Shown here: positions 14,074 to 29,659 of the stretch, piece after piece
Position numbering within the stretch: position 1 is the first letter of the stretch
Layout: every line of letters starts with the position of its first letter
Assembly (NCBI GenBank): GCA_964388955.1
Contig: CAYMCO010000015.1
Span: 21,266 to 85,265 of the forward strand
Origin: an uncultured Anaerolineaceae bacterium
GTDB taxonomy: Bacteria > Chloroflexota > Anaerolineae > Anaerolineales > E44-bin32
Reading direction: 5' to 3'
Length of the DNA stretch: 64,000 nucleotides
The notes under the pieces: model-generated
What the model was told of the DNA's origin: nothing
The model's database searches: none
The model's input: only the letters and a program-made list of their open reading frames with translations
Position numbers and translations under genes: made by a program

Positions 14074-14573
14074 TCAGGGGCATAGAAGCCGGCGTGATGA
14101 CTTTCGGTGCCCTCCCTCATCCCTCAGCGCGATGCGGAAGGAATAGCCGTCATACCCGGCAGGCGTGAGGTTGAGCACGTTATTCGTGTATAGATTCGGG
14201 GCGAGCCGGATGGCGATCACCACCGTGAACACAAGGAACCTGTGCTGTAGTGGATGATGGTGAAGAACGGCAGCAGGAAAAGCCAGAAGAGGGCGTTGTA
14301 TGCTTTGCGGATCAGGGCGAGCGGGTGCGTGGATGCTTGTTTGACGGCGATGTAATCCTCCGCATTCTCACGGAGCCATGCGTACCGCATGGCCGTGTGT
14401 CCCTCGAGGAGCAGTCAGTACAGCACGCCGATGATCGAAAGCCCGACCATTCCACCCCTTCCCTGCCACAGCGTGTTGGAGAGTGCGTAGACGACGTACA
14501 TCAGCGCGGGAATCCCCAACGCAAATGTGAGGATATTGTTGCACCCCACAGTGAGGAATCTCTCCCCGGCCAT
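14074..14573 (-). pseudogene. membrane protein gene disrupted by an in-frame TGA and a frameshift
   Basis: My translation from ATG 14573 (GGAAGGA upstream) gives MAGERFLTVGCNNILTFALGIPALMYVVYALSNTLWQGRGGMVGLSIIGVLY, then a TGA at 14417-14415. It continues LLLEGHTAMRYAWLRENAEDYIAVKQASTHPLALIRKAYNALFWLFLLPFFTIIHY. After a frame change it reads FLVFTVVIAIRLAPNLYTNNVLNLTPAGYDGYSFRI. The sequence stays protein-like across both lesions. Confidence 0.45.
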
Positions 14574-14649: not shown

Positions 14650-15015
14650 CTACACCCATCGCCAGGCGTACCAGACGGTCAGCACATTGAGCGCCAGGCC
14701 GACGATGTTCAGGAACTTGTCATATAGGGAAGGGTAGGTCGGCAAACCGATCAGGTTGAAGATGAAGAAGATTATCGGAAGGATGATGTTCGCCCAGCGA
14801 TTCACGGGCTGTGGGAGCGTCAAGCACAGGAAGACCATGAGCGCCGGGAAAACGAACAGGGCGGCCATCCCCAGGTACAGCCCCTGACCGGCCTCCATCC
14901 CCGCCATCTCCCCCGCCTTGAAGTCACCGCTGAATATGCGCAGCACATCCCCCAGGAGATAGCTCAACATCAGCGCGATCCACAATGCGGAAAGCTTGAA
15001 CTGTACATCTGCCAT
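14650..15015 (-). CDS. small 4-TM membrane protein (DUF6326-like), paralog of 20473..20838
   Basis: 121 aa, MADVQFKLSALWIALMLSYLLGDVLRIF...NVLTVWYAWRWV. It shares KLSxLW...GDVLRxFxGD...NLxGLP...WYAWRWV with the paralog and starts 3 nt after the QOR stop. Confidence 0.7.
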   Translation of the reverse strand: MADVQFKLSALWIALMLSYLLGDVLRIFSGDFKAGEMAGMEAGQGLYLGMAALFVFPALMVFLCLTLPQPVNRWANIILPIIFFIFNLIGLPTYPSLYDKFLNIVGLALNVLTVWYAWRWV

Positions 15016-15018
15016 GAT

Positions 15019-16001
15019 TTAGTCCCCTTTCAACGTGAGGACGACTTTGCCTCGAGCATGACCCTTTCTGTAGTAGTCGATCGCCTCCGCGATCTCATTT
15101 AGCGGGTAGCAGCGGTCGATCACGGATCTGACCTTCCCCGCTTCAATGAGGTCCTTCAACTCCACCAGATTATCCTTCGTGATCTCCAAGATGAGATTGC
15201 CCACCTTCTTGGATCCTCTCATTGAAATCAACGGTGCCAAGAACATCGGTTGGAAAACTTGGGCCATGGAACCCCCCGTCACAACGTAACTTCCATCCGG
15301 CTTCAAGGCACGCGCATAGTCGAAGATCGAGCGGTATCCGGCGGTGGCGAGTATCAGGTCATATCGCTGACCAATCTCGACAAAATCCTCACGCGTGTAA
15401 TCGATGACATGGTCCGCACCAATGGACCGCACCAGGTCCAGATTCTTGGTGCCGCACACGCCAGTCACTTCAGCCCCGAACGCCTTTGCGATTTGCACCG
15501 CGTAGGTCCCGATCCCCCCGAGGCCCCGACAATCAAGACTTGCTCTCCCGCCTGGATTCCGCCTTCATCGCGCAGCCCCTGCAAAGCGACGGCCGCCGCT
15601 TCGGGCACAGCCGCCGCCTCCTCAAAGGTCATGTTGGAGGGCTTCAAGCCCAGGACATCCTCCGGGACGGCGACGTACTCTGCATATCCGCCGCGACCGC
15701 AATCCGATAGGTCCCCGTAGACCGCGTCTCCCGGCGCAAATTGCGTCACGCTTTTGCCCACCGTTTCCACTTGCCCGGCGATGTCCGTTCCGAGGGTCCG
15801 ATACGCCGGTCTGAGGAGACCAGCGCCCATCAGGCGAACGATGAACGGATCCCCACTCACGAAAGCCGCATTGGAGTAGTTCACGGAAGCTGCATGAACT
15901 CTTACAAGGACCTCATCATCCGCGGGGACAGGTCTTTCGACCTCCTGAAGCTCAAGGACATTCGCCGGTGGACCATATTCCGTATACACGACCGCTTTCA
16001 C
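15019..16001 (-). pseudogene. MDR-family NAD(P)H quinone oxidoreductase, split by a -1 frameshift in a C6 run
   Basis: ORFs 15465..16001 (MKAVVYTEYGPP...VLIVGASGG) and 15019..15498 ([16 protein letters not shown]...) are the two halves of one gene. The expected GASGGIGTYAVQIAK is restored by adding one C to the run at 15514..15519. Confidence 0.75.
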
Positions 16002-16242
16002 ACAGCACCTCCTGATCGCGCAGAATTGCTTGATACCAGTTCGGCAGACCGGCCGGCAGCCTTATGAATGCTTCCACCTGCCGGACGCATCGCTAGGGCG
16101 AGGCCGGTGCGCCGGTGTATCGAGCAGGGCTGTCTTACAACACTCGGTCTACTATAATGCCACCCGTCCAGCGATCGGGCACAGGATGCCCCGCCTGTAC
16201 GATCGTTGAAGAGAATCCTATCGAGTGGACATGGACGCATCA

Positions 16243-16929
16243 TTAATTGATCTCCGATCCCGGCTCTATGCCCTTTATCATCAGCCAGGGCCCGATCAAG
16301 AACTCAAATACCATGTACGGGGCCCCAAAGTAGATGATCACCCCCACGTCAGGGTTATACAGCCCCCATAGGACGTTGATGGATAGCAAACACAATGCGG
16401 CAAGGCCCCAAATGGAGAGGACCCGCGGGATCGCCTTCGATTTGACGAACAGGAAATACCAGAGGATCCCTCCCAGACAGAAGAACAGCATATGCAGGCT
16501 CCAGCCCTGTCGATCAATCCCATGATAGAGAAAATCGCCCAGCGTCTGATAGAAGGACGAAGCGGGCGCGCCCGCCGCCTGGAAATCCATGCTCAGTGGG
16601 ATCAGCGCATAGGCCCCCAGCTTGCTCAGCCCGAGGATGATGCCCTCCGCCAACCACCACCCGAAGGCCACGGTGGCGATGACCCGATACCGCTTGCGAA
16701 ATACGGCATAGAGCAAGGCTGCGAGCGCCACGATGCCGACGCTGGTAACCAGTTCGATCAGAATGCTGATCCGCATCAGGGTAAGGTTCTCCGGGATATT
16801 GGCAAGGATCTCGCTGATGCTGCCGGATCCGATCGCGGAAGTCAGAAGGGGATTGCTGATCATACTGGCTAGGAATACCAGCAGAAACGCCCCGCCCAAG
16901 AGCCTGATGGTATTGCGATCTGTGTTCAT
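16243..16929 (-). CDS. DUF4386-like membrane protein
   Basis: MNTDRNTIRLLGGAFLLVFLASMI...FFCLGGILWYFLFVKSKAIPRVLSIWGLAAL...FEFLIGPWLMIKGIE. GAGGAGGA lies upstream of ATG 16929. Confidence 0.7.
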   Translation of the reverse strand: MNTDRNTIRLLGGAFLLVFLASMISNPLLTSAIGSGSISEILANIPENLTLMRISILIELVTSVGIVALAALLYAVFRKRYRVIATVAFGWWLAEGIILGLSKLGAYALIPLSMDFQAAGAPASSFYQTLGDFLYHGIDRQGWSLHMLFFCLGGILWYFLFVKSKAIPRVLSIWGLAALCLLSINVLWGLYNPDVGVIIYFGAPYMVFEFLIGPWLMIKGIEPGSEIN

Positions 16930-17211
16930 TTCGTCCTCCTCTGATTCCGGGGGCATTCCCCCCGGTATGGTAAGGGTCTCTCTGTCTGCGGCCGCTCTAT
17001 TCAGCCCAACCCAATCGCGGCTCGCTGACTTCGGCCGGAACCGCTGCTAGGTCTCGGCCATGAAGACAAGATTGTCAATCGCGTCCCTTGATCCCCTGCT
17101 CCCGAGTTGGTCGTACTCTCCGCATAAGACTTGGACGCTACGTGGAGCGGGAGGCCCCCTCACCGGCAACACGGCCCCGTTCACATCCAGCATAATCGGC
17201 GCAATGCCGCA

Positions 17212-17247
17212 TGTCATACCCCGAACGTGTTATTCGAGGGGTTAATC
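17212..17247 (-). promoter_or_regulatory. conserved 36-nt intergenic motif, copy B
   Basis: The plus strand reads TGTCATACCCCGAACGTGTTATTCGAGGGGTTAATC. It lies between the CPBP gene stop (17488) and the DUF4386-like start (16929). Confidence 0.7.
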
Positions 17248-17487
17248 GGAATAGATAGGAGAAGCGATTTGCTCGTTGAACATCGCCCGCCGGTCCACGA
17301 ATTCAGGGCTGCCGGAAAGCCCGGGCCCCGTGCGCAAGAACAACGCAAGTATGAATCGACCCCACCTTCCGGGAGTCCCTGAATCCTCGTCCCATGCGTC
17401 CCCGGCCAGCAGCCGAGCGAGTGGGCTCGATCCAATTGCTCGGCACCCTACCCATTGGGGGAGAGAAAGACCGGATTGGCCCACCGC

Positions 17488-18300
17488 CTACCCCGCCCCC
17501 ACCGCAGCCATGAGGAGGAAGACCATATTGAAAAGGAAATTGCCGATCCAATGGTAGATCATCGCCAGGGGCAGGCTCCCCAACGGCCCGGCTGCGAAGG
17601 CGAAACCCAGCCCCCCGACAAGGATGCCAGGGTAAAGCCAGCGCTGATATACATGCTTCAGCGTGAACAACACCCCGTTGGCCACCCAATCCCACTTTCC
17701 GAATGCTCCGCGCATGCGCGGCAGGAGATAGCCGCGGTAGTAGATCTCCTCCCCGAAGATGTTGAACACGAGCCCAATGAGAAAATAGACCAGTATGAAC
17801 AGGAAGTTGCCTCGCAATCGGATATCGGGGAACACGTCCCCAACGCCCTCGATTTGGATAGTGGGGTTGCTCGCGACCGGCCACCACTCGGGAGGGCCAA
17901 ATCCTGGCACGGATGCCAGCCACCGATTGACCGGGCCCATCGCCATGCTGAGGCTCATCCCCAGCACGAACACAAATCCCGCGAGCAGCCATGCTTTCAA
18001 GCCGCTGGGCCAGCGCCAGCGGATGCGATCCCGCAACGTACGAATCGTAAGCCGGTAGCCCTCCCGCTTAAGCAAGAGCAAACCGCCGGTCAATTCAGCG
18101 CCCGTGCCCAGGACAATGATCGACAAGACCATCCAGGTAGGTGTGGTGCCGCCCTCGGGAATCAACGGGCCCAGAATGCCGTAGATCAGCAAAGTGAACC
18201 AGGCGGCTGGCCAGAGGAACATCAGGATAATCGTCCCCACTTTGAACTGGGGGATCTGCCGTGGATGGGAAGCTCTGCCCATCGCTTCATTGGATCTCAT
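17488..18300 (-). CDS. CPBP family intramembrane glutamic endopeptidase (CAAX protease-like)
   Basis: Polytopic membrane protein with FGEEIYYRGYLLPRM (EExxxR motif) and a later FTLKHVYQ (FxxxH motif). Confidence 0.7.
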   Translation of the reverse strand: MRSNEAMGRASHPRQIPQFKVGTIILMFLWPAAWFTLLIYGILGPLIPEGGTTPTWMVLSIIVLGTGAELTGGLLLLKREGYRLTIRTLRDRIRWRWPSGLKAWLLAGFVFVLGMSLSMAMGPVNRWLASVPGFGPPEWWPVASNPTIQIEGVGDVFPDIRLRGNFLFILVYFLIGLVFNIFGEEIYYRGYLLPRMRGAFGKWDWVANGVLFTLKHVYQRWLYPGILVGGLGFAFAAGPLGSLPLAMIYHWIGNFLFNMVFLLMAAVGAG

Positions 18301-18498
18301 CTATTCGGACAACTCATCATATCTCCCGGACCCTCAGGGGCCATCAGTGTCAGCCGAGAATCCTCCACCCTTTGAAGCCCATGCGATTGGTGAAGCGTTC
18401 AATAGCCCTGGCCTCCTCCCATTTCTCACAGGGACGAATCAGATGCCATTGATGCTACGAAGAAGCGGGCCCGAAGGTGCGCGAGTCAGCTTGGACAT

Positions 18499-19431
18499 TC
18501 AGCGGCCATTCACCACCGCTATGGCCACGTTCCCCACCTTGTGCCCCTTTTCGACATACCGGTGAGCCTCGATGATCTCATCCAAAGGGTAGCGTCGATC
18601 GATAACCGTCCTGAGCTCCCCCGCTTCGACCAACTCCCTCAGGAAATCAAGATATCCTTCATCCAGATCTTTACCAGCTCCGGAGTCCCGCCCGACCGCG
18701 AGGTAGGTCCCCCCAGCTTTCTGCGCCATCCTCGCCAGGGATGGCTTGAGCTTGTCTACGGCGTCGAATATCACATCATAGTTGGCGGCGGGGAGAGAGA
18801 AATCCTCCTTTGTATGATCCAGCACCTGACTGGCCCCAAGGGAGCGGACCAGATCTAGATTTCTCCTGCTGCATACTCCGGTCACCTCCGCTCCAAAGTG
18901 TTTGGCGAGCTGGACAGCGAATGTGCCCACGCTCCCTGATGCGCCGTAGATCAAGACCTTCTGCCCCGGCCGAATGTCCCCCTTCCGAAGCACAATCAAC
19001 GCGGTCAGGCCCCCACCGGCGAGCGGGGCCGCTTCTTCGTAGCTCGCGTTCGCCGGTTTGATGGCCACCATGCCCTTCTTTGTGCCCCCGCCCCTTTCAG
19101 GCAGACAGATATACTCGGCGTAAGCGCCAAAACCAAAACCAGCGAAGGCAAAGACCGGATCTCCGAGTTGAAATCGCTTTGCCTCCGGGCCCATGGCCTC
19201 CACATCTCCGGCCAACTCAAGCCCGAGTATGGGGATCTTTCTGGGGCGGAAGAGGCCGTTGACCAGCCTTGCCAGGAATGGATCCGGTTTTCGCATGCGG
19301 ATATCTCCGACATGGGCCGTGGTGGCGTGGATCTTCACCCGGATTTCATGCGCCTTGGGCTCTGGCCTTTCCACGTCTTTGAGCTGAAGGACCTCCGGTG
19401 GGCCGTAGTGCTCATATACGACGGCTTTCAT
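18499..19431 (-). CDS. MDR-family NAD(P)H quinone oxidoreductase (zinc-free alcohol dehydrogenase-like)
   Basis: [25 protein letters not shown]...[37 protein letters not shown] lies upstream of ATG 19431. It is a paralog of three other genes in the window. Confidence 0.85.
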
Positions 19432-19476
19432 GCGGACATGCCTCCCCAAGGGTGCTCATCCATCGGTCATCGCAGG

Positions 19477-20169
19477 CTAGTATCCCGCCGCTGGAGCGGG
19501 CTGCGGGGCGAGCGGCGCGGGACTGAAGCCTCTCACGATCAGCCACACGCCCAGGAACAATTCATTCAACAACATGACAAACCCCAGATTTGGCAGGCTC
19601 ACTCCGAAGATCTCGAAGAGGGTATTGGCGAGCACGACCACGGCGCCCAGGAGCCCCCAGATGGAAATAAATCGGGGAACCAGCCTGAGTCGGAACAGCA
19701 TGCCGTAGAACAGCAGCGCCCCGCAGCCCAACGTAATCGAGACCATCTGAAACGCCCACGCGCGCTGTGCCAGCAGCGCAGCGCCGACGGTCTGGGCGGA
19801 GGGCTCAATGGCGGCTCCAAGGCCCACAGCCCCCTCGCTCACCGTCAGCAGGGCTAAGGGTGCGAGATCGGATAGGATCTGCATGACGAACTCGACGATC
19901 CGAAAGCCGATGTATCCGAGCGCCAGGCTCTCGAATCTCCCTTTCAGCACGGGGAACATGTAAACGGCGATGCCCAAGTATGCAAAGGCGTTGACGATCT
20001 CCAGCAGGGCGCCGACGACCAGCTTCGATCGATTTGCAGAAATCAGCGTGAGGTAATCCGGGGCGCTGAGGAGGGGTTCGAGGAAGACTATCGCCCCCAC
20101 CAAAAAGACGACGTTGGAAATGATAAAGAAGGAACCGACCAGCCTGGCAGTACGTCTGCCCGAATTCAT
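19477..20169 (-). CDS. DUF4386-like membrane protein
   Basis: MNSGRRTARLVGSFFIISNVVFLVGAIVFLEPLL...ALLFYGMLFRLRLVPRFISIWGLLGA...NELFLGVWLIVRGF. Confidence 0.7.
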   Translation of the reverse strand: MNSGRRTARLVGSFFIISNVVFLVGAIVFLEPLLSAPDYLTLISANRSKLVVGALLEIVNAFAYLGIAVYMFPVLKGRFESLALGYIGFRIVEFVMQILSDLAPLALLTVSEGAVGLGAAIEPSAQTVGAALLAQRAWAFQMVSITLGCGALLFYGMLFRLRLVPRFISIWGLLGAVVVLANTLFEIFGVSLPNLGFVMLLNELFLGVWLIVRGFSPAPLAPQPAPAAGY

Positions 20170-20240
20170 CTCACATCCTTTCTCCCAAGTTCTACTGCGG
20201 CAAGATCGACTGTCTTCAGCATAGCAAGCGGGGATACCGC

Positions 20241-20277
20241 TGTCATACCCCGAAGGTAGTATTCGTGGGGGTTAAAG
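20241..20277 (-). promoter_or_regulatory. conserved intergenic motif, copy C (37 nt, one inserted base)
   Basis: The plus strand reads TGTCATACCCCGAAGGTAGTATTCGTGGGGGTTAAAG. It lies 72 nt upstream of the start at 20169. Confidence 0.7.
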
Positions 20278-20333
20278 CGGCCAGCAACCAATGCTCAGAA
20301 AGTGGGGATCAGGAGCCCAAGCATTCGCACTGT

Positions 20334-20454
20334 GTAGGCCGGGTTTGCTACCCGGCGAACCTGTGGGGGCGCCCACAAGGGGTGCCCCTACAACTTTCCG
20401 GAATGTCCTTTACGTCACGTGAGCGTGGACGCGCCCTGGCATTCCCCGGCCTAC
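20334..20454. repeat. REP/BIME-like structured GC-rich element
   Basis: Perfect 10-bp terminal inverted repeat GTAGGCCGGG (20334-20343) / CCCGGCCTAC (20445-20454). It encloses the hairpins CCGGGT-TTGCT-ACCCGG (20339-20355) and GGGGCGCCC-ACAAG-GGGTGCCCC (20366-20388). The core recurs at 20948..21001. Confidence 0.55.
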
Positions 20455-20472
20455 GCAAGGGGTCAAGCGCGT

Positions 20473-20838
20473 CTAGACAACCCACCGCCATGCATACCAG
20501 ATTGTTAGCGCGTTGAACACAAAGCTCACGCCGATGAGAAAGTTGTCATACGCGCCCTTGTACGGGAGACCAAAGAGGTTGAAGACGACGACTAGGACCG
20601 CCACGACGATGTTCACCCAGCGTATAGCGGGATAGACCAAAGTCAAAGCCAGCACGCCCATGACGATCGGGATGAGCATCATTGCCGCAATGAACAGCCA
20701 CATGCCGGGGGAAGCCTGGGAGCCCATGATCATTCCCGGTTCGGCATCGCCGGCGAATAGGCGCAGCACGTCACCCCAAAGATAGGTCAGCATCGTGGCG
20801 AACCAAAATCCTGAGATGATGATCCTTGTATCTACCAT
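20473..20838 (-). CDS. small 4-TM membrane protein (DUF6326-like), paralog of 14650..15015
   Basis: MVDTRIIISGFWFATMLTYLWGDVLRLFAGD...NLFGLPYKGAYDNFLIGVSFVFNALTIWYAWRWVV. GGAAAGGAAGGTG lies upstream of ATG 20838. Confidence 0.7.
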   Translation of the reverse strand: MVDTRIIISGFWFATMLTYLWGDVLRLFAGDAEPGMIMGSQASPGMWLFIAAMMLIPIVMGVLALTLVYPAIRWVNIVVAVLVVVFNLFGLPYKGAYDNFLIGVSFVFNALTIWYAWRWVV

Positions 20839-20947
20839 GGCTTGCACCTTCCTTTCCGAATGGCTGGTGGGCCGGCCCGAAGAACGTGAATCGGAGGAGT
20901 CTGAGCGGCGTCAGGCACATGCCCATGGATTCTGAACAGATTCCCTC

Positions 20948-21001
20948 GGGCGCCCACAAGGGACGCCCCTATCTCTGCCGCTCACCAATCTTTCCGGGAT
21001 G
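20948..21001. repeat. second, partial copy of the REP-like core
   Basis: GGGCGCCCACAAGGGACGCCCCTAT ... CTTTCCGGGATG compares with GGGGCGCCCACAAGGGGTGCCCCTAC..CTTTCCGGAATG at 20366-20405. Both are in the same orientation, one on each side of gene 20473..20838. Confidence 0.5.
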
Positions 21002-21202
21002 GCGGTGCAGACGCCCCGGCGGGGTGTCTCTTCAGGTGCGCCCTTGGCTTTCAGGCGCTCGTCGGCCCAGCAGATCATCCCGCGCATAAGACCGCGGGGG
21101 CAAATCACGAATTGCCCTACGAGGCGCGGAAATCGTTCCGGCCAGCATGAAGGAGTGTCTGGGGGGAGGATCGCTCTCTGCAGCCTCTCCGCCTCCCGAT
21201 CA

Positions 21203-22171
21203 TTAGCCCACCGTGAGGACCACCGCCCCTATCTTCCGCCCGGATTCGACATACCTGTGGGCCTCGTCGGCCTGTTCGAGGGGAAAGGACCGATCAACGA
21301 CCGATTTCAGTTCTCCCGCCTCCATGAGCTCTTTGAGGAATATCAGCTCTTCGGTTTTCACTTCCAAGAGCCCGATAATCATCCTCTGGCTGGCCCTGCG
21401 CCGGTACCATAGAATCTGCAGGAGCCTTGGGAGACCAAAGGTTGTGAAGAGATAGTATCCGGACTCCGCCAGCGATCTCCTGCTGCGTGAGATTGCGGTC
21501 TTGCCCACGGTGTCCAGGATCACGTCGTAGGTCTGCCCATTTCGGGTGAAATCCTCTCTAGTATAGTCAATGACCTCATCCGCTCCCAAGGATTTCACGA
21601 ACTCCGCTTTGGGGCCGCTGCACACGCCGGTCACCTCGGCGCCCAAATACTTGGCGAGCTGTACCGCCGCACTGCCCACCCCACCGGATGCGCCGAAGAT
21701 CAGGGCTTTTTGCCCATTCCGGATATTTGCCTTTCTCAAGAAATGCAAAGCCGTCAATGCCCCTTGAAGGACGCTGGCGGCTTCTTCATAACTCACGTTG
21801 GCCGGCTTCAGTGCGGCAGCAGACTCGGGCAGACATGCGTACTCGGCATAGGCGCCGTACCTCATCCCAGGATAGCCAAATATCGGATCCCCCACCGTGA
21901 ACCGTCCCACATCCTCTCCAACGGCCTCCACCTCCCCCGCCAGCTCTGTCCCGAGGATGGTCGCTCTTGGTCTGATCAAGCCCGAACCTATTCGGCTGAG
22001 CAGCCACATCCCGGGAGGCGCCGTGGAACTGCGCATCCAGCAATCGAATTTCGTCGCCGAGGTGGCATACACTCTGACAAGTAGTTCATCTGGCTTCGGG
22101 ATCGGTTTGTCCACCTCCTTGAGCTGCAGGACTTCCGGAGGGCCGTATCGTGTGTACGCAATCGCCTTCAT
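21203..22171 (-). CDS. MDR-family NAD(P)H quinone oxidoreductase
   Basis: [25 protein letters not shown]...[36 protein letters not shown] lies upstream of ATG 22171. Confidence 0.85.
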   Translation of the reverse strand: MKAIAYTRYGPPEVLQLKEVDKPIPKPDELLVRVYATSATKFDCWMRSSTAPPGMWLLSRIGSGLIRPRATILGTELAGEVEAVGEDVGRFTVGDPIFGYPGMRYGAYAEYACLPESAAALKPANVSYEEAASVLQGALTALHFLRKANIRNGQKALIFGASGGVGSAAVQLAKYLGAEVTGVCSGPKAEFVKSLGADEVIDYTREDFTRNGQTYDVILDTVGKTAISRSRRSLAESGYYLFTTFGLPRLLQILWYRRRASQRMIIGLLEVKTEELIFLKELMEAGELKSVVDRSFPLEQADEAHRYVESGRKIGAVVLTVG

Positions 22172-22249
22172 GAGGATTCCTCGCTGCTTCGGTTCCATCT
22201 ACTCATCCCGGGCCTCGGAGGAGTACGCATACCCGAGAAGGGATCCAGG

Positions 22250-22618
22250 TCAATTGAACCCCTTTACGATCAGCCACAGCGCGACCACCAACTCGAATGG
22301 CGCATAAGGGAGGCCCAGCACCATGACCGCGGTGAAATCTCGCTTGAACAGCACGAACAGTACGGGGATCGTCAACAGACCGACGGCGATGAGCCCCCAG
22401 AGGGAGAGCGCCGGTGGAATTGCCCTGGATATATAGAGCAGGTAATACCACAATATCGCGCCCAGGCAGAAGAACCACATATGCATGTCATAGGCCACTC
22501 GATCCACACCATGGCACAAGAAATCCCCCATCGCGTGATGGAACGATGATGCCGGCGCTCCCGCCGCCACGAATTCTTGGCTCAACGGGATGAGCGCATA
22601 GGTGCCGATCTTGCTCAC
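22250..22618 (-). pseudogene. DUF4386-like gene, C-terminal half only
   Basis: (V)SKIGTYALIPLSQEFVAAGAPASSFHHAMGDFLCHGVDR...WFFCLGAILWYYLLYISRAIPPALSLWGL... aligns to residues from about 110 to the end of the 16243..16929 protein. The N-terminal half is missing. The preceding gene's stop (22620) is 1 nt away. Confidence 0.6.
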
Positions 22619-22619
22619 T

Positions 22620-23279
22620 CTAACTCAGGCTGAATGGAGGATAGCGGTCGGTGACCAGTAGAACAACATAAGCCTGCACCCGCAGCCACCAGCGGCCCAC
22701 CCCAACAACGAAATCGAAAAGGGATCTCGGATACCGCCCGGTCAGCAGAATGGCAAACCAAGCCAGGATCACCACGAAGACGCCGGCTACGCTGAGAAAC
22801 GCCAGCACGATGTAGTGCGGGATCGCGAGCAGCCATTTGAACAGCGGGTACCAGCGGTTGAGGTCCGCTTCTACGTTGGGGTAATCGATCTCCAGATGCA
22901 CAGACTGTTCTTCGACGGTGGAGGGGTATAGGTCTGTGAGCAGCGCCCCGTAGGCGGCCACCCGGGCGCCGAAGCGAGCCAGCTCGCGAGAAAAGTCGAA
23001 CCACCAGCGAGGATATCGATATCGAAAGATGATCATCAATGCCGTGGCGGTGGCGAGGCCGCTCACCAGGCCGCCAGCCGTCTCCCGGGTGGTCCTCAGC
23101 ACCTCGCCAGCCTGATTGACATAGATGGTGTTGGTGACCGTCTCACCGGCCCCTGAAACGAGCGCGAGGATGATGCCGATCGGTATGATCCAGAGAATGC
23201 GCAAGAAAGTCGTCAGCCGATCGAGCCTTTCGGGATAATCGATTTGCAGTCGAGCAGGATAGTCCGCGGGATTGTTCAC
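22620..23279 (-). CDS. DUF4389-like membrane protein (two tandem repeats)
   Basis: GTG 23279 with GGAGGTG upstream. NNPADYPARLQIDYPERLDRLTTFLRILWIIPIGIIL...RYPRWWFDF is followed by a second repeat, VHLEIDYPNVEADLNRWYPLFKWLLAIPHYIVLAFL...GRYPRSLFDFVVGVGRWWLRVQAYVVLLVTDRYPPFSL. Confidence 0.65.
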   Translation of the reverse strand: MNNPADYPARLQIDYPERLDRLTTFLRILWIIPIGIILALVSGAGETVTNTIYVNQAGEVLRTTRETAGGLVSGLATATALMIIFRYRYPRWWFDFSRELARFGARVAAYGALLTDLYPSTVEEQSVHLEIDYPNVEADLNRWYPLFKWLLAIPHYIVLAFLSVAGVFVVILAWFAILLTGRYPRSLFDFVVGVGRWWLRVQAYVVLLVTDRYPPFSLS

Positions 23280-23495
23280 AGCACACCTCCATGGGATATG
23301 CCCCGTTACAATACCGGCGCCCAGCATCCGGAGGGCGATTCCGACCTCCGGCGGCAGACGGCGCCGCTGCACTCCGATTAGGATAGATCGTAAATGCGCA
23401 TGTCCCCTCCATTCTGGCATGCGTTTCAGATCGCCCGGATCCGCAGCCGATTGGATTTCTCTTCTAAGAGGAGTTTATGTCCGAGGGGGTGTGGG

Positions 23496-23531
23496 TGTCA
23501 TACCCCAAAGGTGGTATTCGGGGGGTTAAAA
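23496..23531 (-). promoter_or_regulatory. conserved 36-nt intergenic motif, copy D
   Basis: The plus strand reads TGTCATACCCCAAAGGTGGTATTCGGGGGGTTAAAA. It starts 18 nt downstream of the stop of the LuxR-type gene 23549..26338. Confidence 0.7.
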
Positions 23532-23548
23532 GGCGCAGTCACTCGTGA

Positions 23549-26338
23549 TCAGGTCGCGGGCAATAGCCCGAGGGATCTGGCCTCCGCGACCGCCTGGGTG
23601 CGGTTGTTGACCGCGAGCTTGCCGTAGATGTTGCGGGTGTGAACCTTTACCGTATTATGGGAGAGAAACAATCTCCTGGCGATCTCGCGATTCGTCAGCC
23701 CGCGGGCGATGAGCTCGAGCACCTCCAGCTCGCGATCGCTCAATGGCTCAACCAACCGTGATTGATCGACCCCGGTCCTCCCTAGAGCGGCTTCAGTAGA
23801 GACATCAGGTGCAAACGCGGCAAGTAGGGTGCGAACGTACGCCTCCAGCCTGAGGGCATCCGGTCGTATCTTTCCCAACAATGATTTCATCGGCGCACCC
23901 TCGCCGACAAATGCGTGCGCATATCCCTCCGGTTCCGCAAGATCGAGAGCCCGTCCCAGAGAGATGAGCGCTCGAGGGAGCTTGCCCTGGGCTTGAAGCG
24001 CGAGCGCCTGAACCACCAGGATTTCGATCATGCTGCCGATTCTATTGCCATCCTCCGCAGCGTTCAGGAGGCGATCCAGCATTCCAAGTGTATCGCCAAT
24101 CAAACCCTCCGCGTGGGCTCTCTCATGCTCGGCGATCAATATCCTGGCCAGGGTGAGGTGCTCGAACTCGCACAAGTAGCTGGGATCATCGTGAACGGAC
24201 AGGCCCGCCTGCCGCGCCCAAAGCAGGCCTTCGTCCAACTTGCCCTGTCTCAACTTCGTCCGGGCGACCAGCGCCGCCAGGGGGCGTATGTCGGGAATAG
24301 GATGCCGATAATATAGGCGTTGTGCCTCCTCCAGAATCCGCCCAACAGCCTCCAAGTTTCCAGCGGACTCCATCAATCGAGCCCGAGCGAGCACCCAGTG
24401 TCGATACCAGGGGGGGAACGCCGGCAGCTCGCCTAGTTCCTCGCTATTCTCCAGATGCCGTCTGGCCGCTTCCAGATCACCCTGCTCATGGCACAGCTCA
24501 CTCAACCCCAGATGCACGACCGCCATTTCCGGCAGAACGGGTTCCCCCCGCTCCGCAGCCAAATCCAGGAGCTGTATATAGGTTTGTTTCGCTTCGTTGA
24601 GACGGCCCTGGGCGATCATGATGTCCGCCAAATACGAGGTGAAGCTGATGACGAAAGGGAGCTTTCCTAGAAGCCGCATATAGGATATGGCATCGGAGAT
24701 CGCCCGGTGGGCCGCCTCCAAATCCCCGGTCGACCAGTATGCGAACCCCGGGAGGATGGCTGAGAGACTGCGCTCGAAATAGTCATCGTCAGGCAGGAGG
24801 TCGAGCGCCCGTTGAGCGTAGGACACAGTGCCGGCGACGTCTCCGAGCGCCTGAGTGAGATAGGCGCGTGCATTGGCTATGGATCCCGACAGTGATCGCC
24901 GTTCCTGCTCGCTCAGGGCTGCCGTGTGGCCCGATGGGGGATCGGATTGGTGATTTCTGGCTGCTGTTGAGTCCAACCATCGTTCGGCATCCCGCAGACG
25001 GAGGTCGGCGCCCTCCAGATCGCCGAAATCTATCAATGACCAGCCATAGCCCGCGCTGAGTAGAGGCCTGGAACGAACAACTTCGTCTGGAATGGCCTCC
25101 ACCCATCGCAGCCAGTAGAGTCCCCCGTAGTTCATGTGCATTTCACGCCAGGCTGTTTCGGCCAAGCAGGCTGCTCGCTCATGATCCTTGGCTCTCAGAG
25201 CATGCTCTATCGCCTGCTCGGTGAACCTATTGGCCTCATACCACTCACTGGCCCTCAAGTGCAGGGTTGGTTGTTGTTGGGGTTGGGCTTGGCGCAAGCG
25301 TTGGCGCAATAGATCGGCGAAGAGATGATGATAGCGATACCAACGCCGCTCGTTGTCCAGGGGAACGACAAACAGATTCACATGCTCGAGATATTCAAGG
25401 ATCTCCTGACCATTGTTCTGGCCGGTCAGGGCATCGCATAGTGACCCGTTCAGCCTCTCCAGAATCGCAGTCTGGAGCAGAAAGGCTTGAATGCCTTCCG
25501 ATTGTTGATGCAGCACTTCTTCCAGCAAATAATCGAGCACGAGCCGGTGGCTGCCGGTAAACGATTTGATCAGTTCGCTCTTGTCTTCCTTGCCACGCAG
25601 TGAGATGGCAGCCAATTGCAGCCCCGCGATCCAGCCCTCCGTGCGTCTCTCGAGTGCGGCGATGTCTTCGTCCAGCAGATCCAACCCCATGACCTGGTTT
25701 AGGAATGCGGCAGCTTCGGCTGTGGTGAAGCGGAGATCCCCTGCGCGCAGCTCCGTCAACTGGTCAGCCACCCGCAGCTTTGCGATCGGCAACTCCGGGT
25801 CCATGCGTGTCAGGATGACGATGTGCATCTGTGGCGGCAAGTGTTCAAGGAAATAGGTGAGCGCCGCAATCACATCGGGCGCCTCGATGTGATGGAAATC
25901 GTCCATGACCACGAGGGCCCGATTCTCGAAGCCCTCGAACTCGTTGATCAGAGCGGTGAGCACGGCCTCGGCCGGGGGAGGGTGCGGCGATTGGAGCATA
26001 TCCAGCAGACGGCCTTTCTCGGGCGATTCAAGGCCCTTGACCCTGAGGAGTGCCGTGATCAGGTACGTCAGGAATCTGGCCGGATCATTGTCCGCCTCGT
26101 CCAGCGAATACCAGGCAATTTGAAGGCGGTTCGGGTCTGAATCTCGGGAGTGGGCCCGGAGCATCTCCACCCATTCGCTGATGACCGAAGTCTTGCCGAA
26201 GCCGGCGGGGGCGGAGATAAGGATCAATCTACGATGCAATCCATCGTTCAAACGCTCGATCAGACGCGGCCGAGCAACGCGTTTGGATCGAGCGGGCGGG
26301 ACATACAGCTTCGTGTACAGGATCTCTTCGTCGGGCAC
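23549..26338 (-). CDS. MalT-like STAND ATPase / LuxR-family transcriptional regulator
   Basis: 929 aa. N-terminal P-loop LILISAPAGFGKT, a long helical/TPR-like middle region, and a C-terminal LuxR HTH LSDRELEVLELIARGLTNREIARRLFLSHNTVKVHTRNIYGKLAVNNRTQAV. Confidence 0.85.
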   Translation of the reverse strand: MPDEEILYTKLYVPPARSKRVARPRLIERLNDGLHRRLILISAPAGFGKTSVISEWVEMLRAHSRDSDPNRLQIAWYSLDEADNDPARFLTYLITALLRVKGLESPEKGRLLDMLQSPHPPPAEAVLTALINEFEGFENRALVVMDDFHHIEAPDVIAALTYFLEHLPPQMHIVILTRMDPELPIAKLRVADQLTELRAGDLRFTTAEAAAFLNQVMGLDLLDEDIAALERRTEGWIAGLQLAAISLRGKEDKSELIKSFTGSHRLVLDYLLEEVLHQQSEGIQAFLLQTAILERLNGSLCDALTGQNNGQEILEYLEHVNLFVVPLDNERRWYRYHHLFADLLRQRLRQAQPQQQPTLHLRASEWYEANRFTEQAIEHALRAKDHERAACLAETAWREMHMNYGGLYWLRWVEAIPDEVVRSRPLLSAGYGWSLIDFGDLEGADLRLRDAERWLDSTAARNHQSDPPSGHTAALSEQERRSLSGSIANARAYLTQALGDVAGTVSYAQRALDLLPDDDYFERSLSAILPGFAYWSTGDLEAAHRAISDAISYMRLLGKLPFVISFTSYLADIMIAQGRLNEAKQTYIQLLDLAAERGEPVLPEMAVVHLGLSELCHEQGDLEAARRHLENSEELGELPAFPPWYRHWVLARARLMESAGNLEAVGRILEEAQRLYYRHPIPDIRPLAALVARTKLRQGKLDEGLLWARQAGLSVHDDPSYLCEFEHLTLARILIAEHERAHAEGLIGDTLGMLDRLLNAAEDGNRIGSMIEILVVQALALQAQGKLPRALISLGRALDLAEPEGYAHAFVGEGAPMKSLLGKIRPDALRLEAYVRTLLAAFAPDVSTEAALGRTGVDQSRLVEPLSDRELEVLELIARGLTNREIARRLFLSHNTVKVHTRNIYGKLAVNNRTQAVAEARSLGLLPAT

Positions 26339-26629
26339 GCGCCCCCCTGGTGCCCAGTATATATCCCGGGGAGCGGGTGTTCAAGGCGTCATAACTCCAG
26401 CAATTCATGAAAACCGTTATCTGCTCTCCACACACAGGATGAACTGGAGGGCGTGAGCCCCACGGTCGCCCGAAACGCCAGGAGCATCACGGGTGGACGC
26501 TGCCGCGGTTGTGCATATCAAAGATCGCGATCTGATCATCGGCCGCAAGCGGGGCTTTGAATTCATTGGACAAGCGGATCAGATCCAATTCTCATACAAT
26601 AGTCCATCGAGACGACTGAACATGGGCGA

Positions 26630-27277
26630 ATGAAAGACTGTGACATGGAGATAGAGCCGTTTGTTGAAGGCCTGGTTGCGGGCTACGGGATCGCGATCCC
26701 GGTGGGGGCGGTCGCGGTGTTGATCGTCAATACGAGCATTCAATGCGGCTTTCGGGTCGGATTCTTTGCTGGCGCCGGCGCGGCGACCGCCGATTTCATC
26801 TACGCCATCCTGGCAGGCCTCGCCGGGGCCGCGCTGGAGCGGTTCCTTCACCCCGCCGCGGTGGCCCTGCACTTCACGAGCGGGATCGTGATCATCCTGC
26901 TGGCGGCATCCATCTTCCGCCGGGGTTTGGCGCGGCCAGGTGACGAGGAAGAGTCTGCACTGATCTGCGGACCGATGCGCATGTACTTGCAGTTCCTTGG
27001 CATCACAATCATCAACCCGCTCACGGTCGTGTACTTCACCGCCCTGATCCTTGGAAGCGATCCAAGGGAAGCGCTCAGCCCCTCAGCGGTTGGTCTCTTT
27101 GTGTTGGGAGTGGGCGTCGCCTCCCTTTCCTGGCAAACGTTTCTTGCAGGTCTGGGAGGGCTTGCCCGGGATCGACTGCCCCGTAGCTTCCGCCGGCTCA
27201 CCGCCCTGGCCGGGGGTCTCTTGGTGGCGGTGCTTGGGTTGAGAGTCCTGGTTTCGGCGATGCTTGAATACACATAG
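26630..27277 (+). CDS. LysE/RhtB-family amino-acid exporter
   Basis: Hydrophobic, about 210 aa. FVEGLVAGYGIAIPVGAVAVLIVNTSIQCGFRVGFFAGAGAATADFIYAILA is typical of the LysE/ArgO family. The start is ATG 26630 or 26645. Confidence 0.65.
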   Translation: MKDCDMEIEPFVEGLVAGYGIAIPVGAVAVLIVNTSIQCGFRVGFFAGAGAATADFIYAILAGLAGAALERFLHPAAVALHFTSGIVIILLAASIFRRGLARPGDEEESALICGPMRMYLQFLGITIINPLTVVYFTALILGSDPREALSPSAVGLFVLGVGVASLSWQTFLAGLGGLARDRLPRSFRRLTALAGGLLVAVLGLRVLVSAMLEYT

Positions 27278-27348
27278 CCCGTCCCGCAAGGGTCGTTTGG
27301 AGCAGCTACTCTGGGGGCGGTGTGGATCCGAATCCGGACGGAGTGATC

Positions 27349-27627
27349 CTAATCGATCCGAATCGCAAGAATGGTGGTGTCATCGGACAAGGGTGTTCCG
27401 CCTGCAAAACTATCCAATCGGTGCCTGATCTCTCGAATCGTATCGGCAGGGGATGCCAGATAGAGCCCCTCTACTATGTCTTGCAGGCGCCGCATTCCGA
27501 ACATCTCCTCCGCCGGGTTGGTCGCCCCTACAAGCCCGTCGGTGTACATCAAGAGCAGGTCACCCGATCCCATCTGTATCGACCCTTCAAGACTCTTGGG
27601 GTTCAACCTCCTCACCCCTGGCAACAT
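27349..27627 (-). pseudogene. PP2C/SpoIIE-type phosphatase, C-terminal fragment only
   Basis: GDLLLMYTDGLVGATNPAEEMFGMRRL...GTPLSDDTTILAIRI are the last conserved blocks of a SpoIIE/PPM domain. No N-terminal part is present. The 5' end overlaps the preceding gene. Confidence 0.6.
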
Positions 27628-27850
27628 GGATCACCGATATCAGCGGCAGTCCGAGAGAGTACAGCCGGCGCAGCATCCCGTGGAGGGCGGCCTGATCCAA
27701 TGCCCCGGCCAAGGTTGTCACGGGGGGGCCATCCCCCTCGCGCTCAAAGCTGATCACCATCCCCTCCACCCATTCCGCTCCGCGCAGGTCGATCTCCCCA
27801 GGCACTCTGATCTCGTAGTTGGCGGGCTGATCCAGGGAAAGCTTCTTCAT
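27587..27850 (-). CDS. small conserved protein (87 aa), unknown function
   Basis: MKKLSLDQPANYEIRVPGEIDLRGAEWVEGMVISFEREGDGPPVTTLAGALDQAALHGMLRRLYSLGLPLISV. ATG 27850 is 14 nt after the QOR stop. The DQAALHG.L..L..LGLPL.SV pattern recurs in small proteins of GC-rich bacteria, as far as I remember. Confidence 0.55.
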   Translation of the reverse strand: MKKLSLDQPANYEIRVPGEIDLRGAEWVEGMVISFEREGDGPPVTTLAGALDQAALHGMLRRLYSLGLPLISVIHVARGEEVEPQES

Positions 27851-27863
27851 GGTCCCTTTCAAT

Positions 27864-28814
27864 TCACATCTCGATGATGAGTTTGCCTTGAGTGTGCCCC
27901 CCTGCAAGTTGGTGCAGAGCGGATGGGAGCTCAGCGAGAGTATAGCACCGGCCAATCCACGGTCGGATTCTACCCCTCTCAAGGAGTTCTTTGATGATTC
28001 CGAGGTCCCCCTTGGTCGGCCGCTTTGGCTGCAGCGGCACCATCCTTCTGCCGGCACGCATGGACCGGATCCTTCCCACCACGGCAAGGGCTGGAGTGAA
28101 CTCGGTCGTGATAAAGACGCCATGGGGCCTGAGGGCGCAGCGGCATTCGGCGAACGTGCGCTTCGCGGCGACATCAAAAATGAGGTCATAGCGCCCGCCG
28201 TCTTGGGTGAAGTCGTCTTGTGTGTAATCGAGGGCGTGGTCCGCGCCCAACTCCTGCACCATTTCGAGATTGTCAGTGCTGCACACACCGGTCACCTCGG
28301 CCCCGTAGGATTTCGCAATCTGCACTGCGAAGCTCCCCACGCCACCGGATGCCCCGTTGATCAGGGCCTTCTGCCCCTCCCTGATCGCCCCCACGTCCCG
28401 CAGCGCGTGCAGGGCTGTGGAGGCTGCCGCCCCAACAGCCGCAGCCGCCTCGAAGGTCAAACCCCCCGGTTTGAGCTGGATTTCATCCCTTTTGACACAC
28501 GCATATTCGGCAAAGCACCCGTTGCCGGTGGACCCGAAAACCTCATCTCCCGGCTGGAAATCGGTTACACAGGGCCCAGCAGCCTCGACCCGCCCGGCCA
28601 AGTCTATCCCCAGCACCTCGTGCTTCGGCTTGAAGAAACCGGCCATAATACGCGTGATAAATGGTGACCCGGTGAGGAAGTGCCAGTCGAGCCAGTTGAC
28701 GGAAGCGGCATGGACTTTGACCAGGACCTCATTGACATCGACGGAGGGTACATCGATTTCCTGGAGCCGGAGCCCTTCGGGGGGGCCATACCTATCGTAG
28801 ACCATTGCCTTCAT
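27864..28814 (-). CDS. MDR-family NAD(P)H quinone oxidoreductase
   Basis: MKAMVYDRYGPPEGLRLQEIDVPS...[30 protein letters not shown]. It is the fourth paralog. Confidence 0.85.
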   Translation of the reverse strand: MKAMVYDRYGPPEGLRLQEIDVPSVDVNEVLVKVHAASVNWLDWHFLTGSPFITRIMAGFFKPKHEVLGIDLAGRVEAAGPCVTDFQPGDEVFGSTGNGCFAEYACVKRDEIQLKPGGLTFEAAAAVGAAASTALHALRDVGAIREGQKALINGASGGVGSFAVQIAKSYGAEVTGVCSTDNLEMVQELGADHALDYTQDDFTQDGGRYDLIFDVAAKRTFAECRCALRPHGVFITTEFTPALAVVGRIRSMRAGRRMVPLQPKRPTKGDLGIIKELLERGRIRPWIGRCYTLAELPSALHQLAGGHTQGKLIIEM

Positions 28815-28865
28815 GGCGTTGCCGTGCCTTTCCCATTGGAGCCCTGCTTCAGCCTCAATCGCTCT

Positions 28866-29546
28866 TCAGACGGCACTCTCCCGGATACCGAAGATCACGA
28901 GGTAGAAGCCCAAAATCAGTTCGAAAGCGACCATGGGCAACATCATGACCATGTTGGCGTTCTCTGGCAGATCGACGACCAATGCCAAGACAGAACCCAG
29001 AGCGAACACGACAGCACTGGCTACCCCGTAGATGGCCAGGGCGACGGGGATTACCCGGCCCTTGAGGAACAAGTAGTTGTTGAACAGGCTACCAATTGAC
29101 AGGAAGACGAAGGAAGTCCAGACAGCCAACGTCGACGCAGCGATGAGAATCTGGCCAAGAATCTCGACATCCCCCATCCCGGCCGCGGACGATGTGATGG
29201 CTGAACGGCCCAATGTCAGCACCAGGTAGTCCGGAATCTTCGCCCCCGCCTGGAGCACAACCTCCGCGATCCGCCATCCCAAGGCAAGGAGGGCTAAGTA
29301 ATGGTTGATGGGTCTCAGGACGACGTACAGCGAAAACGCCAGGGACATGACCGCGACCATGGCCAAGAAATCGATCGAGACGGCCGTCCGATATTGGACT
29401 GCGTTGGCTGCCACGAGGCCGAGAGTGCTGGGGATATCCGCTGCGTTGATAAGCTTACCCTTGAGCGCCAAGTTGGCCACAAGAAAAGCCAACACAGTCG
29501 ATACATAGAGCGCACCAGTAATCCTGGAAACTCGCTTCCGGTCCAT
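28866..29546 (-). CDS. DUF4386-like membrane protein
   Basis: MDRKRVSRITGALYVSTVLAFLVANLAL...FLSIGSLFNNYLFLKGRVIPVALAIYGV...FELILGFYLVIFGI. AGGAGG lies upstream of ATG 29546. Confidence 0.7.
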   Translation of the reverse strand: MDRKRVSRITGALYVSTVLAFLVANLALKGKLINAADIPSTLGLVAANAVQYRTAVSIDFLAMVAVMSLAFSLYVVLRPINHYLALLALGWRIAEVVLQAGAKIPDYLVLTLGRSAITSSAAGMGDVEILGQILIAASTLAVWTSFVFLSIGSLFNNYLFLKGRVIPVALAIYGVASAVVFALGSVLALVVDLPENANMVMMLPMVAFELILGFYLVIFGIRESAV

Positions 29547-29623
29547 TCCTGCCTCCTGAACCGCGTTTCAACGCCTGCAAATTTCGATTGGCCATATTGA
29601 GCATATCCGGAGAGTGGGGCCAG

Positions 29624-29659
29624 TGTCATACCTCCAAATCCTGCCCAACATGGGCGCAA
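29624..29659 (-). promoter_or_regulatory. degenerate half-copy of the intergenic motif (copy F)
   Basis: TGTCATACCTCCAAATCCTGCCC... Only the TGTCATACC end is conserved. It sits 78 nt upstream of the start at 29546, the same spacing as copies A and C. Confidence 0.35.

Follow-up and report, generated by a model that had tools for sequence, protein, structure and literature searches.

The stretch of DNA analyzed here, 64 kb of contig CAYMCO010000015.1 from an uncultured Anaerolineaceae bacterium (hereafter the window), carries about 55 genes. Listing of open reading frames (ORFs), translation and Pfam scans delineate an island between 13.3 and 33.3 kb that is transcribed nearly throughout from the minus strand and in which four genes for DUF4386 membrane proteins (M1, M2, M3' and M4) each stand ahead of a gene for a medium-chain dehydrogenase/reductase (MDR; Q1 to Q4). 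In the direction of transcription, the first half of the island consists of R2, a DUF4383-like gene, M4, Q4, a small gene termed S, a SpoIIE/PP2C remnant and a LysE gene on the plus strand, and the second half of R1, a DUF4389 gene, M3', Q3, T3, M2, Q2, a CPBP/Rce1-like gene, M1, Q1 and T1. R1 and R2, which head the two halves, are MalT-like transcription activators with 46% identity to each other. Outside the island, the window is ordinary chromosome, and no additional copies of the pair genes are present elsewhere in the 64 kb. Genes and features described below lie on the minus strand unless noted otherwise, and loci from other assemblies are designated L followed by a number.

The four pairs had been reported in a preliminary description of this DNA, and all of them were located on the minus strand where it had placed them, with the same family assignments. 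The membrane genes all exceed the PF14329 gathering score of 27.6, with 90.4 bits for M4 (226 aa, 28866-29546), 114.3 bits for M2 (230 aa, 19477-20169), 97 bits for M1 (from 16929 or 16956 to 16243) and 52.6 bits for M3' (122 aa, 22250-22618). The last of these is the C-terminal half of an M1-type protein, covering only profile positions 99-210, which bears out its description as truncated; it starts 1 nt past the stop codon of the DUF4389 gene. Each membrane gene is followed by its reductase after a short gap, amounting to 51 nt between M4 and Q4 (316 aa, 27864-28814), 51-78 nt between M3' and Q3 (from 22198 or 22171 to 21203), 27-45 nt between M2 and Q2 (from 19449 or 19431 to 18499) and 241 nt after M1. 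The chance that four given genes among ~55 each directly precede one of four others is, by our own arithmetic, 24/(55*54*53*52) or ~3e-6, and the arrangement of the pairs is therefore not random. Q1 (15019-16001), already described as frameshifted, is indeed broken by a -1 frameshift into two ORFs (16001 to 15465 and 15498 to 15019) through loss of one base in a G-run, and a single G added near 15515 recovers the reading frame GASGG|IGTYAVQ. The Q4 gene of the related locus L038 is likewise broken by one lost G in a G-run (~8170). These two frameshifts stem either from separate slippage mutations or from assembly errors at homopolymers.

Q2, Q3, Q4 and both halves of Q1 combine a GroES-like ADH_N domain with a Rossmann ADH_zinc_N/ADH_zinc_N_2 domain, all above the Pfam cut-offs. 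The position of the GHE motif of zinc-dependent alcohol dehydrogenases (ADHs) is taken by GLELAG, GTELAG, GIDLAG or GTDIAG (G[LTI][ED][LI]AG), a HAASVN-type sequence replaces their Cys-containing motif, and the nucleotide-binding motif is of the GASGGVG type (GxSGxxG). The Pfam domains, the GASGGVG motif and the replacement of GHE identify Q1-Q4 as zinc-free, quinone-oxidoreductase-like MDR enzymes. Their closest relatives of solved structure are Coxiella Qor (3tqh), 2eih, which is annotated as an alcohol dehydrogenase, ceQORH (5a3j), the strawberry enone oxidoreductase (4ida) and RTN4IP1 (2vn8). For Q3, the best match is 3tqh (E 3.5e-39), followed by 5a3j, 4ida and 2vn8, while its more distant matches include the enoyl-reductase domains CurF, CurK and JamJ of polyketide synthases (PKS). 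Both VAT-1 and RTN4IP1 are linked to membranes. ceQORH, a chloroplast-envelope protein by name, reduces the reactive double bond of lipid-derived gamma-ketol oxylipins (PMC5343027). With 5a3j, 4ida, 3tqh and 2vn8, the island reductases share a full-length alignment (E 1e-26 to 1e-39), the GASGGVG motif, an ...AEVTGVCS... segment and the lack of a catalytic-zinc His/Cys signature. In contrast to these enzymes, they score below the NCBIfam subfamily cut-offs, are multiplied into arrays and stand in predicted operons with membrane proteins, a pairing for which we found no report.

For the DUF4386 proteins, PF14329 is the sole Pfam match. The AlphaFold2 model of M2 (pLDDT 93.8) displays six long helices and one short helix, and the helix boundaries together with the positive-inside rule predict cytoplasmic N- and C-termini and very short cytoplasmic loops. 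Across the three subfamilies of the window, G12, P165, G172 and E203 never vary and R90 and E93 hardly do; E57, R90, E93, P165, G172 and E203 are matched by counterparts in a second DUF4386 subfamily, which is introduced below. A profile search of 1.84 billion representatives returned 7974 DUF4386 clusters at 50% identity, and the best 150 of these 7974 representatives, with lengths of 172-342 aa, include no fusion to a reductase. Homology between DUF4386 and DUF6326, considered in view of the similar sizes of M3' and the T proteins, was rejected at an hhalign probability of 0.3%. A literature search on DUF4386, PF14329, DUF6326, DUF4389 and DUF4383 found nothing relevant.

The membrane partners had been described as sharing family-level similarity and the duplications as old and retained, and both statements agree with the sequence comparisons. 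The DUF4386 copies are 24-29% identical pairwise, with the exception of M1 and M3' (54%), the reductases are 40-51% identical and T1 and T3 47%, and a recent repeat is therefore ruled out. Moreover, each copy has orthologues of its own in other genomes at 50-91% identity. M2 and M4 each retrieve a large, separate set of homologues from metagenomes and metagenome-assembled genomes (MAGs), most of the matches listed being ~57-80% identical; M4 retrieves 106 homologues at E<=0.001, mainly with 57-68% identity. The few source names among these homologues are Anaerolineales, Anaerolineae or Chloroflexota, apart from two records labeled Proteobacteria or Desulfobacterales, possibly through mis-binning. 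An M1 orthologue in L016 is 75% identical, and L038 represents a close relative (91% at M4) that is syntenic over R2, the DUF4383-like gene, M4, Q4, S, the SpoIIE remnant, LysE, R1 and DUF4389. In neighbour-joining trees of genes from the fetched loci, M1, M2 and M4 form three deep DUF4386 clades, each with orthologues, and the reductases fall into a Q4/Q1 clade, a Q2 clade and a Q3 clade. Q4 clusters with the reductases found behind M4-type genes in L027 and L028, and an M2-type gene directly precedes the reductase in 8 of the 12 Q2-clade members in the tree. M1 and M3' are sisters, yet Q1 and Q3 belong to different reductase clades. The two trees thus disagree, indicating that the four pairs were not made by simple copying of one pair.

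A repeat search revealed a non-coding family of 34 nt, which reads TTAACCCnnnGAATAnnnCnTTCGGGGTATGACA on the minus strand and which we refer to as the box. The last six bases of the box form the -35-like hexamer of a sigma-70-type promoter match, and a -10 sequence TAnnnT follows every box of the window after 17-18 nt. At up to three mismatches, there are five boxes in the window against 0.00 expected from shuffled sequences; all copies lie within 14.0-30.5 kb, with none in the remaining ~47 kb. They precede the acyltransferase gene Acyl_transf_3 (14006-14039, one mismatch), M1 (17212-17245, no mismatch), M2 (20241-20274, with ATGACA-17-TATGCT and a TG extension), the DUF4389-M3'-Q3 group (23496-23529, one mismatch) and the DUF4383-like gene (30433-30466, no mismatch, with a -10 TAGACT that ends at 30410). 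No box is found between any membrane gene and its reductase in the window. Upstream of M4, a promoter-like site ATGACA-18-TATGCT (29600-29637) includes a degenerate half-box (29624-29637), and a full box occupies the same place in the relative (L038:6923), where the box ahead of the DUF4383-like gene is also found at the syntenic position (L038:6043).

The box is not restricted to this pair of genomes. It occurs in about 12 other Chloroflexota assemblies (L005, L009, L011, L013, L015, L021, L022, L027, L038, L074, L121 and L123), always on the same strand as the downstream gene, and in L013 it is followed by an 88-aa ORF and then by a regulator gene. The genes behind the box are mutually unrelated and encode DUF4386, reductase, DUF4383-like, DUF4389, Acyl_transf_3, alpha/beta-hydrolase and condensation-like acyltransferase proteins as well as S. 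In an alignment of ~24 instances, the invariant columns fall in the GGGGTATGAC and TTAACCC parts and in the -10, and the invariant parts of the box itself are GGGGTATGACA and TTAACCC. Since the box is kept before non-homologous genes, it is a candidate binding site rather than a copied flank. The predicted leaders of the transcripts are ~190-225 nt long for M1 (16957-17190), DUF4389 (~23280-23470) and the DUF4383-like gene (~30165-30405) and ~40-50 nt long for M2, M4 and the acyltransferase. Rfam detects no RNA family between 13 and 34 kb, so that the box and the long leaders do not constitute a known riboswitch.

The most plausible candidates for recognition of the box are the two regulators. 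R2 (920 aa, 30528-33290) and R1 (929 aa, 23549-26338) each combine a P-loop nucleotide-binding domain, a MalT-type tetratricopeptide-repeat (TPR) sensor and a C-terminal GerE helix-turn-helix (HTH) in a single protein of ~900 aa, the layout of STAND/LAL activators. TPR_MalT scores 213 bits in R2 and 201 bits in R1, and GerE 70.7 and 74.8 bits, respectively; AAA_16 is detected at E 1e-5 to 7e-5, which is below the Pfam cut-off, and WHD_MalT is found in orthologues. Residues 9-824 of R1 align to the NCBIfam MalT model with E 1.4e-120 and 404 bits, short of the equivalog cut-off of 537 bits, and R1 is thus MalT-like rather than MalT. The two regulator genes share a promoter-like element of their own without the box (26355-26385 and 33318-33348), with TTGAAC-17-TATACT for R1 (26384-26356) and TTGAGC-17-TATACT for R2 (33347-33319). 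In other genomes, a MalT-like regulator stands directly upstream in L009, L010, L018, L021, L023/24, L038 and L121; in many loci, including L009, L021, L038 and L121, it immediately precedes the first box-led gene. From these arrangements, we infer that R1 and R2 may bind the box.

How far the pairing of DUF4386 with a reductase extends was examined by local tblastn. A scan with one genome per species yielded 19 loci, exclusively of the M2 type and all from Chloroflexota MAGs except one binned as Desulfobacterales, which together with three contigs from exact look-ups make up a set of 22. In 15 of these 22 loci, the M2-type gene has a same-strand reductase within 250 nt, and in about 10 of them it is followed by a Q2-clade reductase after 14-190 nt. 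The reverse check started from five Q2-type reductases picked solely for their long contigs: a DUF4386 gene is directly adjacent in three of the five and no more than one gene away in four. It stands directly upstream in L121 and L123 and, as a 76-aa fragment, directly downstream in L124, is separated by one gene in L120 and is absent in L122. L027/28 and L038/39 retain M4→Q4 pairs. Adjacency and orientation are hence preserved within Anaerolineae-type Chloroflexota, and this part of the proposed tight two-component unit stands.

Other arrangements are found as well. M4-type genes are preceded by an M1-type DUF4386 gene in all six loci examined (L023-L028, representing three independent contexts), and among these six a downstream reductase is present only in L027/28. 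The M1-type and M4-type genes are direct tandem neighbours in L023-L028 and lie 12 kb apart in the window. The tandem layout hints that different DUF4386 paralogues may work together. Reductases often form arrays of up to about six; DUF6326 follows them as regularly as DUF4386 precedes them (e.g., L010 and L016), and they also pair with DUF4389. A tblastn search of plasmids found no reductase within 4 kb of any of nine DUF4386 loci in Bacillota, Deinococcota, Actinomycetota, Bacteroidota and Pseudomonadota; two of these nine genes are divergent from a TetR gene, one from a LysR gene, and one follows a LuxR-type gene. When a second DUF4386 subfamily, 30-38% identical to M2, served as the query in metagenomes, 80 loci (L040-L119) were recovered, 70 of them non-redundant. 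An adjacent reductase is present in 4 of the 70, with 50-57% identity to those of the window. Among 115 immediate neighbours of this subfamily, a Pfam census counted large STAND-type activators most often, namely six SARP/AfsR-like proteins (BTAD+Trans_reg_C) and five MalT-TPR/GerE proteins, against three ADH-type reductases. Across these samples, a STAND-type regulator recurs beside DUF4386 more widely than any other partner, the reductase included. Co-occurrence of the two families beyond the lineage was therefore largely not found, and the two-component proposal is not supported in its general form. The recurring unit appears to be a co-regulated guild under a MalT-like activator and not a one-to-one pair.

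These data bear on two opposite explanations of the pairs. If they formed an obligate physical two-component unit, in which DUF4386 docks the reductase or passes it a membrane-borne quinone or electrophile, one could readily account for the orthologous M2→Q2 pairs of about ten genomes, for the preserved M4→Q4 pairs, for the DUF4386 genes beside independently chosen reductases and for the membrane association of ceQORH, VAT-1 and RTN4IP1. Such a unit is difficult to reconcile with the reductase-free plasmid loci and with the rarity of reductases in the second subfamily, with M1-M4 tandems without a reductase, with reductases that have no DUF4386 or have DUF6326 or DUF4389 instead, with the incongruent trees and with the missing fusions among the best 150 representatives; in addition, the very short cytoplasmic loops of the predicted N-in/C-in topology would leave little docking surface. 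We consider an obligate unit unlikely. Far less credible still is the absence of any functional link, with adjacency as a by-product of tandem duplication and shuffling in a reductase-rich hotspot. The many pseudogenes and rearrangements and the presence of up to about six reductases per locus fit such a scenario, and with three reductases among 15 genes we estimate a chance adjacency of ~27%. However, the M2-type→Q2-clade pairing and its orientation persist at only ~50-65% protein identity between genomes, the box lies upstream of the pair and not between its members, and reductase, MalT-like regulator, DUF4389 and S all reappear beside the subfamily that is 30-38% identical to M2.

The arrangement can be best explained, with a probability of roughly 60%, by a MalT-type inducible regulon of Anaerolineae-type Chloroflexota, in which the pairs are the cores of small operons and DUF4386 and reductase are linked by co-expression. 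The short gaps, the common strand and the position of the box upstream of the membrane gene only are compatible with co-transcription of each membrane gene and its reductase, and the two proteins do not appear to form an obligate one-to-one complex. We hypothesize that the adjacent STAND activators R1 and R2 most likely control this regulon. By analogy with MalT, a small-molecule inducer and ATP would convert the regulator into a multimer, whose LuxR-type HTH domains would bind the 34-nt box with the -35 at its 3' end and thereby recruit RNA polymerase to five or six promoters of the island. Each transcript would open with the gene of a small polytopic membrane protein (DUF4386, DUF4389 or DUF4383-like), and four would continue into a predicted zinc-free MDR NADPH reductase of the ceQORH/enone-oxidoreductase/RTN4IP1 type, often followed by DUF6326. 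Judging from distant homology and gene content, the regulon possibly provides an inducible response against lipophilic electrophiles, among them quinones and alpha,beta-unsaturated carbonyls; paralogous reductases in the cytoplasm would reduce these compounds, and the membrane proteins might deal with the compounds themselves, or with the harm done by them, in the bilayer.

Several observations weigh against this regulon. The box could be bound by a factor other than R1 and R2, and the -10/-35 assignments come from a consensus scan only. The proposed electrophile role is drawn from remote homology of the reductases to solved structures (E 1e-26 to 1e-39), and the Q proteins score below the cut-off of every NCBIfam reductase model, with 130-167 bits against 296.8 for the PIG3-type and 73-110 bits against 348 for the E. 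coli Qor-type, so that they are relatives and not members of these groups. For DUF4386, neither a sequence profile search of the PDB nor Foldseek found a similar solved structure, which makes its suggested role a guess. Finally, the broken genes (Q1, M3', the acyltransferase and a small membrane protein) fit dispensable accessory genes, or could reflect assembly errors.

MalT is the paradigm of a STAND activator that is coupled to transport and catabolism. Accordingly modeled on maltose, an uptake-and-catabolism regulon would have the membrane proteins import organic compounds, the MalT-like regulator sense them and the reductases perform the first reductive step. Besides the paradigm itself, the conserved intramembrane residues E57, R90, E93 and E203, as in many secondary transporters, and the lone DUF4386 genes divergent from TetR or LysR, a common layout for transporters, speak for import. 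The island, in contrast, holds no downstream catabolic enzymes, its content being limited to reductases, small membrane proteins, an acyltransferase and hydrolases, and the many paralogues of the reductase suit broad-specificity detoxification better than they suit a pathway; moreover, a six-helix protein of 225 aa that is unlike any solved transporter makes weak evidence for transport. We therefore regard uptake and catabolism as quite unlikely.

In its layout, the regulon proposed above matches the maltose-regulated large genomic region of Actinoplanes sp. SE50/110, which comprises 51 mostly poorly annotated genes; MalT activates 40 of them, and a motif overlapping the -35 stands upstream of 17 transcription start sites (PMC7567727). 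Like the MalT regulons of E. coli and Actinoplanes (PMC7567727), the island has a STAND activator of ~900 aa with a P-loop, a MalT-type TPR sensor and a C-terminal LuxR/GerE HTH. With the Actinoplanes region it further shares a motif over the -35 at many promoters of one region, poorly annotated putative targets and a gene order that changes between relatives without loss of the motif. In its 3' part, GGGGTATGA, the island box resembles the E. coli MalT box GGGGA(T/G)GAGG (PMC7567727). There are also differences: R1 stays under the NCBI equivalog cut-off (404 versus 537 bits), the box is longer than the MalT site and unlike TCATCC-N5-GGATGA, and the predicted targets encode DUF membrane proteins and MDR reductases instead of functions in sugar or amino-acid metabolism.

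The remaining genes of the island show turnover. The third genes listed for the four pairs in the preliminary description, namely the DUF6326-like genes, the CPBP gene and the 87-aa ORF with a PP2C remnant, are all present. T1 (14650-15015) matches DUF6326 (PF19851) at 29.3 bits with a cut-off of 24, and L016 and L011 carry orthologous pairs of Q1 and T1. T3 (20473-20847), also a small membrane protein and 47% identical to T1, reaches 15.4 bits on its own, under the threshold of 24; 11 of the 13 members of its family match PF19851, with a best E of 2.4e-18. The homologue of CPBP/Rce1-like intramembrane proteases lies at 17488-18300 (PF02517, 49.1 bits) and the DUF4389 membrane protein at 22620-23420 (PF14333, 72.3 bits); the latter recurs in L004, L011, L017, L019, L038 and L123. 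The DUF4383-like membrane protein, listed as an ORF at 29689-30438, scores 21 bits with PF14325, short of the required 27. Its true start is probably near 30160, and the L038 orthologue is called at 157 aa. LysE occupies 26630-27277 on the plus strand. The SpoIIE/PP2C remnant (27349-27627) covers only positions 116-191 of the 192-position PF07228 profile (56.7 bits) and is still a fragment in L038. At ~14131-14414, blastx against intact copies identified the frameshifted remnant of a small membrane protein family (MRFAWLREN...FPFRIP), whose stop-to-stop ORFs comprise ~95 codons. The family is intact beside reductase arrays in L004, L005, L017, L020 and L123, with a called gene of 88 aa in L123. 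Turnover is thus evident from the frameshift in Q1, the truncated M3', the frameshifted ~95-aa protein, the SpoIIE remnant, the degenerate box at 29624 and an internal deletion in Acyl_transf_3.

This last gene (13365-13928; PF01757 at 30.5 bits, narrowly missing the cut-off of 31) has lost ~200 aa and retains, by blastx, homologue residues ~7-44 and ~239-387, and intact box-preceded copies exist in L011 and L123. Its presence raises the question of envelope or lipid tailoring, in which the reductases would act as enoyl reductases and, together with Acyl_transf_3, the condensation-like acyltransferase and alpha/beta-hydrolases, modify a membrane lipid. Regulators of the LAL type classically serve as pathway activators, genes for Acyl_transf_3, condensation/PapA-like and alpha/beta-hydrolase proteins stand behind a box in L011, L013, L121 and L123, and CurF, CurK and JamJ are among the more distant structure matches of Q3. 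The deletion of the acyltransferase in this genome and the highly variable gene content and order between genomes argue against tailoring, as does the window itself, which contains no PKS, fatty acid synthase, non-ribosomal peptide synthetase or other core biosynthetic genes. Lipid tailoring is consequently very unlikely in our view. A biosynthetic-cluster interpretation was dropped for the same lack of core enzymes in the window.

S (27587-27850) encodes a soluble protein of 87 aa without a family assignment by Pfam or NCBIfam. In L023/24 and, for the second subfamily, in L088, L099, L106, L114 and L119, a homologue of S separates the regulator from DUF4386. Because the order regulator-S-DUF4386 recurs in this subfamily, the triad spans more of the DUF4386 family than the DUF4386-reductase pair does. 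A fold interpretation of S was dropped as too weak: single-sequence AlphaFold2 gave pLDDT 78.7 for one model and less than 50 for the other four, and the matches of the model, a small alpha/beta fold, to ferredoxin-like, ACT and PII-like structures were insignificant (E at least 0.009). The triad, with a MalT-like or elsewhere SARP/AfsR-like activator, is found in subfamilies only 30-38% identical. One could imagine DUF4386 as the membrane core of an unrecognised STAND-controlled system, with the Anaerolineae triad having recruited ene/quinone reductases and DUF6326. DUF4386 would then be a new transporter or enzyme for lipophilic electrophiles, perhaps in direct cooperation with the reductases as a membrane-coupled reduction system. 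To us, this seems an unlikely although conceivable extension of the regulon.

Further scans of the region gave few additional features. No component was assigned to a defence system by PADLOC, in which R1 and R2 match a CARF-HTH model with their HTH segments and the other components match nothing. Predicted terminators are at shuffle level (14 found, 13.9 expected). T3 is flanked on both sides by a GC-rich, hairpin-forming repeat of 24 nt (20367-20390 and 20948-20971, copies 92% identical), with a fold energy modestly better than that of shuffled sequences (z about -1.6). A 20-nt inverted repeat, 95% complementary, connects the Q2-CPBP spacer (18454-18473) with a segment inside Q2 (19024-19043).

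The mhqNOP operon of Bacillus subtilis responds to quinone and electrophile stress and contains the DoxX-like MhqP under a MarR-type regulator. The island resembles it in joining a soluble NAD(P)H-dependent enzyme and a small polytopic membrane protein under a dedicated regulator, a resemblance only, as DUF4386 has no detectable relation to DoxX (PF14329 being its one Pfam match) and the regulator is of the STAND/LuxR type in the island rather than of the MarR type. Neither the regulator type nor the reductase type is new; joined to four or five orphan membrane families under one box, they form a combination that is undescribed in the literature searched.

Anaerolineae are widespread, with few cultured representatives. 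The island provides an entry point to the function of the orphan families DUF4386, DUF6326, DUF4389, DUF4383-like and S, for which a simple two-gene-complex interpretation would over-generalise. It also offers a testable frame, consisting of a defined box, two candidate MalT-like activators and predicted NADPH reductases with quinone- and enone-active relatives, and would describe a stress or xenobiotic regulon in Anaerolineae.

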